Below, piece after piece: positions 5,578-21,425 of a stretch of 64,000 bases of DNA (position 1 is the first letter of the stretch; every line of letters starts with the position of its first letter). This DNA comes from an uncultured bacterium. GTDB lineage: Bacteria; Patescibacteriota; Minisyncoccia; UBA6257; GWB1-50-10. The stretch is taken from positions 5,403 to 69,402 of the forward strand of contig CAIKKG010000027.1 in the NCBI GenBank assembly GCA_903827975.1. Direction: 5' to 3'. The position numbers and the translations under genes are program-made. The notes beneath the pieces are model-generated. The model was not told the DNA's origin, did not search any database, and saw nothing but the letters and a program-made list of their open reading frames with translations.

Positions 5578-6013
5578 TTTTTTATTTACTTTTGTTACTA
5601 ATTTAGGATTTCCTTTCTTTAAAAACTGATTCTAAACTCATTAAACAAAAATTGTTTTAATTTATATTTTAGTTTGATCAATCAGAGAATGCGCGCTGTG
5701 CTTAACTTTCGATTCTGTATATTGTTCACATATACGCATCCCTAACTGAATGTATTAACCCAAATCACTTTAAGTAATTTTAGGTTTTAAAATTTATTGG
5801 ATTGTTATAGGTTTAATTTTACTTACTTATTTTTATATTTTTTGTTGTAACTTAATTAAATACAAATTCAATTCAATGTTGGCAGTGGCGGAGACTTTAT
5901 TCATGACTCTTGTTCGTCAATATGCCCTTTTCAAGTTTTCTCACTTTATGCCACCGCCTACAGCGGGGCACTGAATTTTGTATTCGCTCGCTGACTTGCG
6001 AACAAAATTCGTG

Positions 6014-15649: not shown

Positions 15650-15785
15650 CCCATAAATGGGGATTTCTTGGAGCGGGTAAGGGGAATCTCCTTCGCCTCT
15701 CAACTCGTCGTCACTCATCTCGGGCTAGGCACCGCCTCACTGTGTGCACTACTGAGTGCACACAGTTCCGGCGTCCGATTCCCCT
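15650..15785 (-). repeat. tRNA-Gly-associated element, family A (antisense T-arm, core, duplicated tRNA 3' end and terminator)
   Basis: 39-bp direct repeat 15650-15688 = 15796-15834; 13-nt inverted T-arm copy at 15773-15785; core homologous to 19060-19142. Confidence 0.85.
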
Positions 15786-15814
15786 AAGCAAAATCCCCAT
15801 AAATGGGGATTTCT

Positions 15815-15888
15815 TGGAGCGGGTAAGGGGAATCGGACCCCTGGCGCCAGTTTGGAAAACTGGGGTATTACCACTATACGATACCCGC
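15815..15888 (-). tRNA. tRNA-Gly(TCC)
   Basis: GCGGGTA acceptor, CCAGT-TTTCCAA-ACTGG, variant T-loop GTCCGA, encoded CCA. Confidence 0.95.
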
Positions 15889-16013
15889 GACTCCTTGTTT
15901 GACTAGAATAGGATACAAAATTATTCGAGAACCCGCAAGATGTATAAGGGCCTAAATAATTGAATTAGTTTTGTTTTTGACTTATGATGGGTTGAGACAA
16001 ATAAGGTAAATAT

Positions 16014-16622
16014 ATGTTAAATAACAAGCAAACAAAGATGGTTGCGGTTGGCAGTGTGCTTTTCCTTGTGTTGCTTTTTACATCTCTATACTTCATGCGT
16101 AGTGGCGGCGGATCGCCAGAAGCAAATCTTCCTCAGACATTTTTGCTTTCGAGAAAAACAGCAGCACTTATTAGTCAGAATATTGTAGACCTCACAAATA
16201 AAACAGGTGAGAAAATTTCTTCTGCAAATACAGCAGACTTAGCAGGTGATAGAGCTCGAGCAAGTTCGCTTATTTTAGAGGCTCAAAATACGAATGTTGA
16301 AGCAAGTCGCGCCGCATCTCAATTGGCGGGACAGTTGAAAGTTCTTACTGAGTCACTTGCAACAATGAGTTCAGTGAGCAGTCAGAGACTTGCGTATGAA
16401 GCAGTTGCAACGGAGTTGGCATTGGTTTCTGAGTTTGTTGTTTATACGCAAAACTTAAATGAATTTTTGGAGAAACTTCTAGTGTCTATGGAAACCGATA
16501 CAAAAGTAAGTAAAGCGGACATCGCATCGTCTCTCACGGCTACAAATAAAAGCGCGAGAAAAATAAATTCACTGAATGCTGAGTTTAGCGACAGGATGGC
16601 GAAGTTAGATAAATCGTTCTAA
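16014..16622 (+). CDS. Membrane-anchored helical hypothetical protein
   Basis: N-terminal TM, 202 aa, terminator at ~16626-16655. Confidence 0.7.
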   Translation: MLNNKQTKMVAVGSVLFLVLLFTSLYFMRSGGGSPEANLPQTFLLSRKTAALISQNIVDLTNKTGEKISSANTADLAGDRARASSLILEAQNTNVEASRAASQLAGQLKVLTESLATMSSVSSQRLAYEAVATELALVSEFVVYTQNLNEFLEKLLVSMETDTKVSKADIASSLTATNKSARKINSLNAEFSDRMAKLDKSF

Positions 16623-16660
16623 ATATCAAAAAAGCCCTTTCGGGCTTTTTTGATACTGTG

Positions 16661-16732
16661 TCCCCTCGGAGGGAATCGAACCCCCATCAAGACCTTAGAA
16701 GAGTCCTGCTTTATCCATTAAGCTACGAGGGG
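16661..16732 (-). tRNA. tRNA-Arg(TCT)
   Basis: CCCCTCG/CGAGGGG acceptor, GGACT-CTTCTAA-GGTCT, GGTTCGATTCC. Confidence 0.93.
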
Positions 16733-16788
16733 TTAATGAACAAAATTGATTCTAAACGAAAAGTAATGTAATTTAAAGACCTGTGGTT

Positions 16789-16859
16789 CGGAGCGTAGTA
16801 TACCGGCAGTACACCTACCTTGGGCGTAGGCAGACCGGGTTCAATTCCCGGCGCTCCGA
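16789..16859 (+). tRNA. tRNA-Pro(TGG)
   Basis: CGGAGCG/CGCTCCG acceptor, CCTAC-CTTGGGC-GTAGG, GGTTCAATTCC. Confidence 0.93.
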
Positions 16860-16903
16860 CTAACAAAAAAATAAGACCTAATTCGGGTCTTATTTTTTAT
16901 CCC

Positions 16904-17070
16904 GCGCTGGGAATTGAACGGGAAGGGGGTCGGGGAAACAGGAGTTTCCACGTGGCGGAAGTATTGAAACCGCTGGGTTTCAAAAATTTTGCGAATACAA
17001 AATTTGTTTACTTCCCGGCGCTCCGACTAACAAAAAAATAAGACCTAATTCGGGTCTTATTTTTTTATCC
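16904..17070 (+). repeat. tRNA-Pro-associated element, family B (antisense T-arm, core, duplicated tRNA 3' end and terminator)
   Basis: 54-bp direct repeat 16845-16898 = 17012-17065; 15/16 inverted T-arm copy at 16904-16919; core homologous to 21351-21400. Confidence 0.85.
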
Positions 17071-17114
17071 TCATTTGGATTTTGTTAACACCTCAATAAA
17101 AAAAACTCAACGTA

Positions 17115-17888
17115 CTAACGCGTTGGCCTTTTAATTAATAGACTTATAAAGAATATCGCTGAACTTACGAGCGCGGTTGCGAAGCTCGGATTAATTGGAT
17201 AAATGCGTGATATTACGAGACCTGAGAGAAGTGCAATGACCGCAAGTCCAATACTAAGAGTTATAAATCCTTTAAATGACCCGGCAATGTTTTTTGCGGT
17301 TACTGATGGAATTATAAGAAGTGCACTCATTAGTAAAACTCCCACAAAACTAATTCCGACCGCGATTGTGAGTGCAATAAGAATAAGTAGTAGCAATTCC
17401 ATTTTTGGTTGAGAGATGCGAGATGATGTTGCAAGGTCTGGTGCAATTGATGATAGGGCGAGTGGTTTCAAAAGATAAAGAGCTGTTGCGATTATTCCGA
17501 TTGATATCACGGCCTGAGCTAGAGCCTGTTCTAGGGTTATATTTTGAGCATTGCCGAAAAATGCTTCTAGTAAATCTTGCTCTGGTATTAAGAGTGCGCC
17601 CAAGGAAAGTGCAGTTACAAATAGCACTCCAGTAATTGATTCAACGGCTAGCCTTGTTTTCATCTCTATATACCAAATAAGAAGAACACCAACAAATAGC
17701 AGTGCCACTCCACCAAACAAAGGATTAAATTTAAATACTATTCCAATTGCTATGCCTGGAAGTGCGACGTGTGAGAGTGCATCAGAAAGTAGCGTCATCT
17801 TTCTAAGTGTTAGAAGTGAACCTACAATTCCACTTGCTGCAGCAACTAGAATTCCCGAAAGAGTTGTTAGTGTTAAAAGTTCTGTCAT
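17115..17888 (-). CDS. znuB: Zn/Mn ABC transporter permease
   Basis: LRKMTLLSDALSHVALPGIA, VGVLLMSALLIIP. Confidence 0.88.
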   Translation of the reverse strand: MTELLTLTTLSGILVAAASGIVGSLLTLRKMTLLSDALSHVALPGIAIGIVFKFNPLFGGVALLFVGVLLIWYIEMKTRLAVESITGVLFVTALSLGALLIPEQDLLEAFFGNAQNITLEQALAQAVISIGIIATALYLLKPLALSSIAPDLATSSRISQPKMELLLLILIALTIAVGISFVGVLLMSALLIIPSVTAKNIAGSFKGFITLSIGLAVIALLSGLVISRIYPINPSFATALVSSAIFFISLLIKRPTR

Positions 17889-17892
17889 GATA

Positions 17893-18633
17893 TTAGGCTT
17901 TGTCTTCGTGCTCGGGTTTCGCGTCTATTTTTATTGTTCCATAATCGTGATCATGGTGGAAAAATGTCTGGTCCTTGTATAGAGAGGAAAGCTTATCAAC
18001 TGTAAGCTCATCTTCCGGTTGTCCGTAGCAGACCATTTTCTGATTTAAACAAAGCACATTATTTGCATATCGATACACAGCATGAAGGTCATGCGAAATA
18101 ATTAGTAATGCAACACCAATTGAGTCTTGTAGTGTGTGTAATAAAGAGTAGATAGATTCCTGGCCAACAACGTCAACGTTTTCTGTTGGTTCATCAAATA
18201 AAAGAATCTGAGGATTATCTAAAAGCGACCACGCGAGTAATATTCTTTGGAGCTGTCCACTGGAGAGGTGTGCAAGTTTGCGACTGAGCCAACTCGTATC
18301 CACTTTTACCAACTTCAATGCTTTCTCATTCGTCATCTCACGAGTTGGTTTAAGGTTAAGAAATTCAGCAACCGTCATCGGAAGATATAAATCTACATGA
18401 AAGCGTTGCGGTAGGTATCCTACGCGGATGTTTGGCGCCCATTCTATCTTGCCCTCGGTTGGTTTTATTATTCCAAGTAGTGTTTTCAAGAGAACTGACT
18501 TGCCGGCGCCGTTTGGACCGATGATTGCGAGCACTTGTTCCTTGTCTAATGAAAAAGAAACATTGCTCAATATCTTATTGTCTCCAATGGTTACCGAGAG
18601 GTCTTCAACTTTTAATAATTGTGTTTCACTCAT
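17893..18633 (-). CDS. znuC: Zn/Mn ABC transporter ATPase
   Basis: GPNGAGKS, GYLPQ, LSSGQLQR, FDEPT, His-rich C-terminus. Confidence 0.88.
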   Translation of the reverse strand: MSETQLLKVEDLSVTIGDNKILSNVSFSLDKEQVLAIIGPNGAGKSVLLKTLLGIIKPTEGKIEWAPNIRVGYLPQRFHVDLYLPMTVAEFLNLKPTREMTNEKALKLVKVDTSWLSRKLAHLSSGQLQRILLAWSLLDNPQILLFDEPTENVDVVGQESIYSLLHTLQDSIGVALLIISHDLHAVYRYANNVLCLNQKMVCYGQPEDELTVDKLSSLYKDQTFFHHDHDYGTIKIDAKPEHEDKA

Positions 18634-18686
18634 TTTGACTTATGACTATGTTATTGATTATACTGGAATTGTTTGAAAAACGAATA

Positions 18687-18981
18687 GCCGCGGTAGCTCA
18701 GCGGTAGAGCGCAGCCCTAAACTCTTTGGGGCGCGACTCGGTAACGAGTCGATGAAAATCGGGTGAACTCGGGGAAAACTTTCTTAATGGAAAAAAGAAA
18801 ACAATCCCGAACCAAGCTCTGTAGGGCATAAAGGTTACAGAGAAGGCGTAGAGACTAGCGGGTGAGTCCCAACAATAATCCTGCAAATAGCGCCCGACAT
18901 CCTAAATATTAGGATGATGAGATAGTCCAAATTCAGCCTTGGAAGAGGCTGGCGTCGGGGGTTCAACTCCCTCCCGCGGCA
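18687..18981 (+). tRNA. tRNA-Phe(GAA) interrupted by a group I intron (exons 18687-18718 and 18942-18981)
   Basis: Joined exons give GCCGCGG/CCGCGGC-A acceptor, CAGCC-CT|GAAGA-GGCTG anticodon arm and GGTTCAACTCC T-arm. Confidence 0.9.
18719..18941 (+). ncRNA. Group I self-splicing intron, 223 nt, inserted after U33
   Basis: P1 GCCCU/GGGGC with U.G at the 5' splice site, P2 GACTCG-GTAA-CGAGTC, P3 TCGGGTG/CGCCCGA, P7 GAGACTA/TAGTCC, P8 CATCCT/AGGATG, terminal G, P10 CTCTTT/GAAGAG. Confidence 0.88.
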
Positions 18982-19011
18982 CAATAAAAACCCCGTAAGG
19001 GGTTTTTTATT

Positions 19012-19190
19012 TGCCACGGGAAACCTCGCAATTTATTGCGAAGTGTTCGGGAGTTGAACGCCGGAGCGTATCACGCTCAGTAGTGTGTGATGCGAGGCGG
19101 TGCCCAACCCGAGGTGAGTGAAGACGAACTGAGAGGTTAGGGCAACTCCCTCCCGCGGCACAATAAAAACCCCGTCGATTGACGGGGTTT
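19012..19190 (+). repeat. tRNA-Phe-associated element, family A
   Basis: 33-bp direct repeat 18964-18996 = 19143-19175; inverted tRNA 3' copy at 19012-19021 plus 19049-19059; core homologous to 15689-15772. Confidence 0.85.
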
Positions 19191-19197
19191 TGTTTTA

Positions 19198-19491
19198 TTA
19201 AGATAGGTTGATGTGCGGAGTAAGTGCCTTCACAATGGCAATATTTGCGAGACACGTGTCGCAAATGCCACCGACCTGAGTCGCGTGAACTGAGGAGTAA
19301 TTCCATGGAATGCTCTGTCTTTGAATGAGTAGTCTTCCACCCATGGTGCAGTAATCCGTGTACTCCTTGTACTCGCACCCAGAGCGCTCTGGAGCTTCTG
19401 TTAGTGCGCGACGATGTTCAACTCTTTTCTCAACAATCTCAGACTCCATACACACCACACACAGGTAGCGCTTTTCTTGTGGTACACTCAC
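19198..19491 (-). CDS. Small CxxC...CxxC putative zinc-binding protein (paralog 1)
   Basis: GTG start with AAAGGAGG SD; RYLCVVC...GGICDTCL. Confidence 0.7.
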   Translation of the reverse strand: MSVPQEKRYLCVVCMESEIVEKRVEHRRALTEAPERSGCEYKEYTDYCTMGGRLLIQRQSIPWNYSSVHATQVGGICDTCLANIAIVKALTPHINLS

Positions 19492-19599
19492 ACATCCTCC
19501 TTTAGGATAAGAACTGCAAATAACCTAACATCCGTATTTGTATATAGCAAGTAAAATTAATTTAAATAAAAACCCCGTCGATTGACGGGGATTTATAAT

Positions 19600-19911
19600 T
19601 TATAATACAGAACCTTCGACAAACGTGAGATATGGAAGAAGTCGTTTCACAACTTCCGTTTTCAAACAGTTTTCACAAATACCTCCATATGGAGGTTTGC
19701 TCTTGCCCTCGGTTGCTGATGCAACAAGCGGGTCCAACCATGGAGCCTCTGGGTGACCAGCTAAAAGTGAGCCGAACCAAACCTTGTAATTGCCGTGGCA
19801 TGGAAAATCTCCCTCACCGACATCTACACTTTGTTCTACTCGTGTTTGAATAATTGAGCTGTGAGAACAGACAACACACGAATACTTTCTCGTCTCTGTC
19901 ATTAAGGCCAT
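19600..19911 (-). CDS. Small CxxC...CxxC putative zinc-binding protein (paralog 2)
   Basis: AAAGGGAGG SD; KYSCVVC...GGICENCL. Confidence 0.7.
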   Translation of the reverse strand: MALMTETRKYSCVVCSHSSIIQTRVEQSVDVGEGDFPCHGNYKVWFGSLLAGHPEAPWLDPLVASATEGKSKPPYGGICENCLKTEVVKRLLPYLTFVEGSVL

Positions 19912-19986
19912 ACAACCTCCCTTTTAAATAAGAACTAAACAAAAAGTAGCAAATGATTAGTTTGAGCGCAAGGTATTTAGCTTAAT

Positions 19987-20655
19987 TTATGAAAAGTCCT
20001 TCGCATCAACCTCATCTTCTTCAAGAGCCTTCTCCGCCTCCTTCTCCTGGAAAGGAATATTTTTCCTCAATAATTTTTTGAAGAAGAATTCCATAGAAAA
20101 TAGAATTAGTATTACTATTAGAATTCCGTACTCGGCTTGTTTAACCATCCTTCCAGATTTTAGGAAATTAATTCCTGACATAAAGAAGTATGCAAAGCCG
20201 GTAACTGCCGTAAACCAAATTATTACGCCAGTCAGATATGAACGCATAAATACACTAAATTTAGTCTTTGACCATCCAGCGAGAAGAATAACAAAAATAT
20301 TTACACCGATAAGAAATTTCGCGCCAACTAATAATTTAGTGAGATTATTTTTTAAATAATAAAAGTATGATTGGAACCGCTTACTTGGCTTTAATCTATT
20401 TATATAAATCTTCCAGCCGAAGCGCGTATTACGCAACATTCTACCAATCAAGAAAATTGTTGTTTCTCCAGTAATAAGCGAGAGTGGTGCGAAAATAAGA
20501 AATTCAGACCAGGTTAATTTTCCACTTACAATAAGAAATACAGAGAGCATTATTGCAAGCTCGCCCTGTATTAGTATCGCAGCACCTATAATAAAATGAG
20601 TCCAGGATGGATACTGGACGATTAGCTGACCTACGGTATCTAGAAATTGACCCAT
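19987..20655 (-). CDS. DedA/VTT family membrane protein
   Basis: QGELAIML..GETTIFLIGR..AKFLIGVN..LAGWSK pattern. Confidence 0.75.
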   Translation of the reverse strand: MGQFLDTVGQLIVQYPSWTHFIIGAAILIQGELAIMLSVFLIVSGKLTWSEFLIFAPLSLITGETTIFLIGRMLRNTRFGWKIYINRLKPSKRFQSYFYYLKNNLTKLLVGAKFLIGVNIFVILLAGWSKTKFSVFMRSYLTGVIIWFTAVTGFAYFFMSGINFLKSGRMVKQAEYGILIVILILFSMEFFFKKLLRKNIPFQEKEAEKALEEDEVDAKDFS

Positions 20656-20735
20656 GCCAAACTGTTATACTACAAGTATGGAACTTTTTCCAGTGTAAAA
20701 AAATAATTAGTCGAAAATAAACAAACTTTTATTCA

Positions 20736-21176
20736 ATGAAAATATTTGTAACAAGAGAGAGTGTGCGCACGAAAGCGGTAAGACCAAGCGGTCCAGGTGG
20801 ACACATGGCTGATAGAAGATCGATGAAGATACAGATGTGGGCGCTAGTAGAAAAACTTCCGCTTACGGAGGCGCATAAAAAAATGGTTAGGAAAAATCTC
20901 GCACATCGCATAAACAAGAAGGATGAGCTCGAGGTAATGTGTGAGGCTGAACGTTCTCAAGAAGAGAATCGTGATACGGCGTTGGAACTAATGAATACAT
21001 TAATTGCTGATGCAATCAAAGTTAAGAAGCCACGTATTCCAACCGAGCCCCCAAGAAATGTGAAGGATGAGGGTGTCCGCCAACGTGAACTTCGTTATAC
21101 AAAGAAAAAAGAGCGAAAAACTTCTAAAGCTGAGACGCGTCCAAACATGGGCAAGCTCAAAAATCTTGTAGGCTAA
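20736..21176 (+). CDS. arfB: ArfB/YaeJ-like ribosome rescue peptidyl-tRNA hydrolase (GGH variant)
   Basis: RPSGPGGH, RINKKDEL, ERSQEENR, KPRIPTEPP and a basic tail. Confidence 0.75.
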   Translation: MKIFVTRESVRTKAVRPSGPGGHMADRRSMKIQMWALVEKLPLTEAHKKMVRKNLAHRINKKDELEVMCEAERSQEENRDTALELMNTLIADAIKVKKPRIPTEPPRNVKDEGVRQRELRYTKKKERKTSKAETRPNMGKLKNLVG

Positions 21177-21223
21177 AGGGGTTGTAATATCATCCATATT
21201 TTCGTACTATATGGAGTGCGTAT

Positions 21224-21296
21224 GGTGCCTATGGTGTAAAGGTTAACACTGGAGTTTGTGGAACTCTCGATTCGGGTTCAATTCCCGATAGGCACC
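21224..21296 (+). tRNA. tRNA-His(GTG) with encoded G-1
   Basis: G-GTGCCTA/TAGGCAC-C, GGAGT-TTGTGGA-ACTCT, GGTTCAATTCC. Confidence 0.95.
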
Positions 21297-21335
21297 CAGA
21301 AAAAGAAAACCCCGAGTGGGGTTTTTCTTTTTATT

Positions 21336-21425
21336 TATCGGGAATTGAACTGGAAGGGGGTCGGGGAAACTTAAGTTTCCCCGTGGTGGAAGCATTGAAC
21401 CGCCGGCAAACTATTTGTTCGAGAG
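21336..21425 (+). repeat. tRNA-His-associated element, family B (no 3' duplication seen)
   Basis: 15-nt perfect inverted T-arm copy at 21336-21350, then GGAAGGGGGTCGGGGAAAC..GTTTCC.CGTGG.GGAAG.ATTGAA shared with the Pro element. Confidence 0.8.

Follow-up and report, generated by a model that had tools for sequence, protein, structure and literature searches.

We analysed a 64,000-nucleotide stretch of a Patescibacteria genome (the window) in which four tRNA genes, for Gly, Pro, Phe and His, share one layout behind their terminators, as an earlier note on this DNA had described. The genome holding the window is called G000; other genomes and loci bear G and L numbers, and sequencing runs X numbers. 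Our comparisons indicate that the layout belongs to a family of gene-less mini-elements, widespread in Patescibacteria and apparently not yet described, whose order is a replacement gene end, a spacer with hairpins, a short antisense copy of the target (the guide) and a folded core, with the displaced native gene end beyond the junction. We consider it probable that these are site-specific integrative elements, inserted as single-stranded DNA under the direction of their own DNA guide and mobilised in trans, and they seem to change target by changing this antisense address.

In the window, the antisense arms of Gly (13/13), Pro (15/16), Phe (in two pieces) and His (15/15) all end opposite G53 of the tRNA, which upheld both the matches and the common register claimed beforehand. 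Both Phe pieces were present, and the 27 nt between them proved to be a conserved family A hairpin (HP0). The cores aligned pairwise, Gly with Phe (family A) and Pro with His (family B), and direct repeats of the tRNA 3' end measured 39 bp at Gly, 54 bp (exact part) at Pro and 33 bp at Phe, all as the earlier note had it; no second tRNA-His 3' end was found within the window. The note's coordinates held for most features, the tRNA-His lying one base further on, and its suggestion that guide and right-hand gene-end copy can enclose the core was borne out when the Gly, Phe and Pro elements were folded. When the 120 nt behind each tRNA were shuffled 3000 times, a perfect antisense 11-mer arose 0 (Gly), 1 (Pro) and 0 (Phe) times; for His, with a probe one base off register, the one-mismatch level was reached in 5/3000 shuffles. 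Behind the window's other two tRNAs the arm had no match (Arg 5, Leu 4 mismatches).

The same arrangement recurs throughout G000, where 18 of the 48 testable tRNA and transfer-messenger RNA (tmRNA) genes had a downstream antisense T-arm (at most one mismatch in 11, within 120 nt), and a duplicated 3' end followed 12 of these 18 vs 0 of the other 30. The units are 125–271 nt long and gene-less. Family A has three copies in this genome and family B six (one degenerate), while family C occurs at Tyr, Trp, Pro, Arg and perhaps Leu; every complete core sits at a guide-bearing tRNA or tmRNA locus. Family C cores with the same guide and repeat layout were seen at C1:87756-87812, C1:92404-92460, C4:28084-28143 and C39:1438-1519.

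Outside G000, core B was present in 29/61 related genomes, and core A in 11/61 by BLAST and in 19/151 genomes of the class by covariance model. The core models, which the earlier note had proposed as a check, gave target-linked hits class-wide: guide, core and a tRNA or tmRNA T-arm fragment occurred together in 28/28 of the core A model matches listed, the genome's own excluded. Record titles with core B named Patescibacteria in 65/80 cases and were labelled otherwise in 2/80. Across 110 loci (40 A and 70 B), gathered with a loose family pattern that leaves about five of the 40 A rows doubtful (L031, L069, L240, L244, L286), family A occupied 16 kinds of tRNA or tmRNA and family B 18. Core B was also seen in two conserved non-coding, non-tRNA targets (L076, L088, L101, L121 and L124; L042 and L130) and in guide-less, multi-copy forms resembling miniature inverted-repeat transposable elements, with end hairpins of their own and without target duplication (L056, L070, L073 and L107; L043, L047, L081 and L134); a search of 401 genomes for long forms of this guide-less variant returned only cores. 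Rfam, at gathering and E-value thresholds, gave no core match, and in the window only the tRNAs and the Phe group I intron. Cores A and B had no match in phage and plasmid collections; in viral contigs the core B and core C patterns each gave 0 hits and the core A pattern two, of which the one examined was a chance coding match. The literature searched, which leaves most subscription journals and paper supplements outside its coverage, held no published description of the family.

The guides followed their targets. At positions 57–66 they matched their own tRNA at 7.8/10 positions in family A (14 loci) and 8.3/10 in family B (79 loci), compared with 5.3/10 and 5.6/10 against other tRNAs, and the own-tRNA score was reached in 0/10,000 permutations for each family, although these scores are inflated, the guide position having been chosen by best match to the own tRNA. 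This test took the nearest tRNA per core (99/102 rows), and the per-position table kept 9/15 A and 55/84 B loci after those with a poor guide or repeat were dropped; positions 64–68, outside the picking, still matched in 27–36 of 55. Identical or near-identical cores were found with different addresses: in G467, tRNA-Arg and tRNA-Ala each carry an 82-nt core, and these are 100% identical although their guides and gene ends differ; in G004, the Gly core and the Phe core are 95% identical, and the guide at Phe copies a GTCC allele. The T-arm and acceptor sequence of tRNA-His diverges strongly between members of the genus, and the guides follow each version (L207–L211).

Targets were not confined to tRNA T-arms. 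Three protein genes, metG, rnhA and fusA, had core B in their starts and a tRNA-Leu had it in its D-arm, in each case antisense to the gene; two others, rpsI and rpsJ, had it in their ends. All these sites came with matching guides (protein-gene names were assigned by reading translations). The linkage to targets and the tracking of the target by the guide stood, whereas the restriction to places downstream of tRNAs did not. At coding targets the two copies of the gene end encode near-identical peptides and differ mostly at synonymous sites (rpsJ 3/3; fusA 3 within the coding part; rpsI; metG 8; rnhA 9), in a comparison that covers seven of nine loci, L053 being misaligned. Since the copies differ mostly silently, both must have evolved as genes, one of them in another lineage; the element thus brings its own copy of the gene end, and the target gene survives, as shown for the coding targets.

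Empty and filled alleles, which the earlier note had asked about, were both seen at orthologous sites within the genus. At Pro, G000 carries the element, while G004 and G007 lack it; at Phe, four genomes carry it, G007 lacks it and G005 retains a remnant; and at His, five genomes have a complete or partial element and two have none. In the conspecific run X6, a 9.8-kb contig has 5,684 other bases instead of the Phe element (window 18985-19181) and retains the right-hand terminator, from which it follows that the right-hand Phe copy is the native one. Run X7 shows loose ends at the same place as the X6 insert, as a strain-specific island at tRNA-Phe would. Run X2 has low depth over the Phe core, a hint of a mixed population, with the proviso that contig depth does not equal the share of cells. 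The five short contigs obtained from the RNA run X19 all lay outside the cores, at a depth too shallow to weigh.

The junctions are fixed relative to the core-proximal end of the guide, at 4 nt in family A (between T-loop positions 56 and 57) and about 7 nt in family B (between 59 and 60). Family A ends at the foot of a hairpin and the displaced copy begins at position 57. The displaced copy of family B agrees with the tRNA at position 60 in 50/55 loci, compared with 26/55 at 58 and 24/55 at 59. This jump sets the junction at 59/60 and makes the final 7 nt of the core an imitation of the T-loop, mismatched at 58 and/or 59 in 43/55. Core A covaries strongly, with compensatory changes in 19/26 pairs, which exceeds all 500 shuffles and all slid registers, and it carries conserved tandem G-A motifs; core B has a near-invariant first hairpin and a covarying second one. 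The element (top) strand folds better than its complement in 62–63 of 64 cores, and the motif GCGNAGC, which forms a stable mini-hairpin in DNA, occurs 29 times on the top strand vs 0 on the bottom strand of these cores. A second antisense arm against the acceptor strand accompanies 9/40 A and 10/70 B elements (about one by permutation), so the antisense sequence looks copied by fold-back from a downstream hairpin.

Table 1 Features of the four element loci in the window (positions of the window).
Feature	Position	Strand	Remark
tRNA-Gly(TCC), restored target gene	15815..15888	-	
Gly element, left copy of tRNA 3' end (T-loop position 57 onward) and hairpin	15796..15834	-	39-nt exact repeat; probably element-borne
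Gly guide, antisense to own T-arm positions 53-65	15773..15785	-	13/13; GTCC variant copied
Gly family A core, 84 nt	15689..15772	-	two hairpin domains with tandem G-A motifs
Displaced tRNA-Gly 3' end, from position 57	15650..15688	-	repeat
tRNA-Pro(TGG), restored target gene	16789..16860	+	
Pro element, left copy of tRNA 3' end and terminator, 54 nt	16845..16898	+	repeat
Pro guide, antisense to T-arm	16904..16919	+	15/16
Pro family B core, three hairpins	16920..17012	+	last 7 nt mimic T-loop, pair imperfectly with guide
Displaced tRNA-Pro 3' end and terminator	17012..17065	+	repeat
tRNA-Phe(GAA) with group I intron, restored target gene	18687..18982	+	
Phe element, left copy of tRNA 3' end and its terminator	18964..19011	+	exact repeat 18964-18996
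Phe second antisense arm, against acceptor 3' strand	19012..19021	+	9/10; in register with guide
Phe family A upstream hairpin (HP0), between both antisense arms	19022..19048	+	recurs in other A elements
Phe guide, antisense to T-arm	19049..19059	+	11/11
Phe family A core	19060..19143	+	
Displaced native 3' end of tRNA-Phe (position 57 onward) with its native terminator	19144..19191	+	terminator retained in strains without element
tRNA-His(GTG)	21225..21297	+	
His guide, antisense to T-arm	21336..21350	+	15/15
His truncated family B core	21351..21410	+	3' part and displaced copy lost; orthologous site of G004 complete

Several further features lie near these loci. The Gly hairpin called a terminator has the same loop as HP0 and may be HP0. 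The tRNA-Phe intron is a 223-nt group I intron (Rfam, 70 bits), found also in the tRNA-Phe of G002 and lacking in that of G004. The native Phe terminator (19162-19191) is repeated 403 nt on (19565-19594), and small Cys-rich open reading frames (ORFs; 19198-19491 and 19600-19911, minus strand) accompany these repeats in a region dense in strain differences. Behind tRNA-Leu(CAG), at about 5947-6012 on the minus strand, stands a two-hairpin module that occurs without a repeat also at tRNA-Thr and tRNA-Ile of G000 and precedes a GIY-YIG gene in L160.

Taken together, the comparative data support the earlier proposal of a non-autonomous mobile element that can be retargeted, its scaffold staying constant while the segment complementary to the target varies. 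In the mechanism that we favour, the top strand would move as single-stranded, probably circular DNA. Its guide would pair with an exposed target strand on both sides of the insertion point and would thereby set the core, with its bound protein, at a fixed register; this strand would then be cut and joined to the element ends while the guide acts as splint. The final 7 nt of a family B core would also be paired to the guide, in most cases mismatched at 58/59. On retargeting, the new site would serve as source for rewriting guide and gene-end copy, a downstream hairpin probably being copied by fold-back, and the enzyme would act in trans. A bolder form of this proposal, which we put forward tentatively and regard as somewhat doubtful, is that it represents a natural, re-addressable and DNA-guided insertion in which unrelated cores are used, a single-stranded guide of 10–20 nt alone sets the site to the nucleotide, guide and spare gene end are rewritten for each target, and a very small GIY-YIG-type nuclease acts in trans with a host ligase to cut and join.

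The most serious competitor of the favoured mechanism, which we hold to be unlikely, also takes the unit as mobile and sees the arm as a fold-back scar or a cis-pairing att-like hairpin, the site being set by gene-end homology or by a recombinase; attC and the attP of phage CTX are double-stranded att-like hairpins formed in cis. Such an origin would suit the rpsI guide, which fits the left copy better than the displaced one, the guides of G467, which match over 9–10 nt only, the full fold-back arms that exist, and the inferred Gly and Phe circles, which fold with the guide on their own gene-end copy. It has difficulty with the family A guide, which retains 4 nt (53–56) upstream of the junction that are absent from the displaced copy, with a junction register tied to the guide end, and with a target range of T-arms, a D-arm and five protein genes that offers no common sequence to a single recombinase. 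The earlier note had thought of a mobile RNA or DNA or of tRNA-primed insertion; mobility is supported, and the evidence leans to single-stranded DNA and away from RNA or tRNA priming. An RNA as the active form, ribozyme-like or mobilised by reverse transcriptase (RT) with tRNA priming, would account for a fold conserved on one strand, for G-U and GNRA-like features and for the two RT genes of G000, and we still judge it quite improbable, since RT was found in 0/4 other element-rich genomes, gene-start elements are antisense to the host transcript, the DNA-type hairpins are confined to one strand and no Rfam ribozyme matched.

Far less probable is a host RNA acting in cis, which would sequester the T-arm, as the earlier note had offered as an alternative, or control tRNA processing. 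Such an RNA would need what is seen here, a transcribed strand perfectly complementary to the tRNA beside it, but the arms are patchy at orthologous sites, come with displaced gene fragments, stand behind the terminator, and are also found antisense at gene starts and inserted in protein genes; empty alleles and coding targets thus make it unlikely. Finally, an assembly artefact or chance repeats are hardly credible. Short exact repeats do break contigs at these sites, yet contigs with the Gly and Pro cores came out of three runs belonging to three studies, and two of these runs show five substitutions in the Gly core. An artefact of assembly is thereby excluded, and more than 100 independent loci carry compensatory changes. 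Among the outcomes that the earlier note had named beforehand, we thus found cores without an Rfam match, linked to targets, with guides that track the tRNA, and present in independent runs.

Several results weigh against guided insertion of single-stranded DNA by an enzyme in trans, beside the inflated guide scores described above. Neither a circle junction nor cleavage was found in contigs, the sole material examined; no replication-strand bias was found, with local skew as a weak proxy; and GNRA-like loops also occur in the cores, so that an RNA form keeps some probability. No enzyme recurred beside core B in 150 clustered loci (834 ORFs, with only housekeeping or syntenic neighbours). Y1, RT, IS110, TnpB and tyrosine integrase were rejected as mobilisers, since their occurrence does not follow that of the elements: Y1 was found in 0/8 genus genomes and in 18/61 relatives, counts that incomplete assemblies may lower; the two RT genes of G000 lie on small contigs without cores; IS110 was present in G000 only (0/4 other element-rich genomes); and TnpB was found in 0/5 element-rich genomes. 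Concerning GIY-YIG nucleases, the SRM consensus hairpin was found in 0/64 cores on either strand, G001 has 11 core B matches and no small GIY-YIG match (a single weak GIY-YIG match), GIY-YIG cassettes colonise tRNA ends independently, and L319 runs on into a second GIY copy, so that nuclease-bearing elements may be nested GIY cassettes.

In the window's contig itself, recombinase, Y1, GIY-YIG, RT, IS110 and TnpB families had no match, in agreement with the earlier statement that no integrase, transposase or RT gene is in the window. Elsewhere, one tyrosine integrase gene (PF00589) lies on another contig of G000 and none recurs near cores, and large serine recombinase islands stand between tRNA and element in two loci, with junctions of their own, and were taken as nested. 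Our lead candidate for the mobiliser, circumstantial and more likely wrong than right, is a small stand-alone GIY-YIG nuclease for single-stranded DNA working with a host ligase. GIY-YIG genes were found inside A or B elements in L185, L316, L319, L324 and L430 (L319 being a complete A element) and adjacent to an element in L285; model R1 matched 2/89 GIY loci at E<0.01. Nesting of cassettes may explain such arrangements. G000 has three small GIY-YIG genes, two of them fused to tRNA 5' ends. Small GIY-YIG genes at C1:87370-87570 and C14:32997-33200 of G000 follow a 5' half that is broken by a hairpin, with an intact tRNA (Tyr and Gln) on their other side. Guide-less GIY-YIG cassettes (L346–L425), whose ORF end overlaps the right hairpin, were also seen at the T-loop of mainly Ser, Gln and Asn tRNAs; 34/43 loci with a detected tRNA have a 3' repeat, 22 begin at position 61, and no target-tracking arm was found (best antisense 11-mer with 3–5 mismatches in 43/43).

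If guide pairing does set the site, the mini-elements would be a natural programmable DNA insertion with a DNA guide and a scaffold of less than 100 nt, known hitherto only from engineered IS608, and finding the enzyme would open a concrete route to a compact tool. The family also accounts for the tRNA fragments, exchanged gene ends and hot spots of insertion found in genomes of Patescibacteria (more than one third of the tRNA genes of G000), and through its members essential genes receive ends that are alleles of other lineages. Were the guide a mere scar, this would still be an abundant family for which the literature covered, most subscription journals lying outside, held no published description.

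Set beside known systems, the architecture stands apart, while the roles given here to the enzyme and to guide pairing are putative. IS200/IS605 elements, as the available text on IS608 describes them (PMC5934647), have strand-specific hairpin ends and a DNA-DNA guide 5' of the hairpin through which they can be reprogrammed, a likeness in which pairing on our side is predicted from sequence. According to the same text, the natural IS608 guide has 4 nt and the extended pairing of 8–13 nt, upstream of the cut, was engineered, whereas the mini-element guide is natural, 10–20 nt long, spans the junction and varies per site; IS608 as described there has no displaced gene copy, whereas the mini-elements carry a replacement gene end. 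IS200/IS605 elements and PATEs also use a fixed 4–5 nt motif without duplicated target and a Y1 (HUH) transposase, in contrast to variable targets with 15–92 nt repeats and no Y1 in the genus genomes. Retroelements differ in that RT is present in 1/5 element-rich genomes, off the core contigs.

Islands in tRNA and tmRNA genes, in the available accounts (Islander, PMC4383910; mv4 integrase, 10.1101/2023.11.06.565760), likewise split the gene at the T-loop or junction, restore it from inside and leave a displaced fragment. The mini-elements, however, have neither integrase nor cargo in their 125–271 nt; one core serves 16–18 kinds of tRNA or tmRNA as well as protein genes, with identical cores at different tRNAs, whereas an island lineage uses one or few att sites; and an internal antisense copy of the site is absent from the island signature given in those accounts. 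Ssn proteins are small single-domain GIY-YIG proteins that bind hairpins in single-stranded DNA (NTS/SRM) and cleave at a set distance; a second strand can be used to program the cleavage, and NTS-ssnA-NTS was likened to insertion sequence elements by its authors (PMC11893778). They would share with our candidate the pairing of small GIY-YIG nucleases with single-stranded hairpins; they differ in the SRM consensus, which our cores lack, in that no strand transfer is known for Ssn, and in that the accessible part of that paper mentions neither tRNA nor Patescibacteria. GIY-YIG ORFs are also described in non-intron rRNA insertions (PMC11270868, available text). Consistently with the mini-elements, the guide-less GIY-YIG cassettes have a junction at the border of T-loop and T-stem, a duplicated 3' end and a G-A-rich hairpin ending 2 nt before the junction, but they carry a nuclease gene and fixed inverted hairpins, lack the target-tracking arm, and have detected tRNAs that are nearly all Ser, Gln or Asn. 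The mini-element might be viewed as an IS608-type, DNA-guided single-stranded element crossed with a tRNA island, one that would fit neither of these, nor the Ssn/SRM system.

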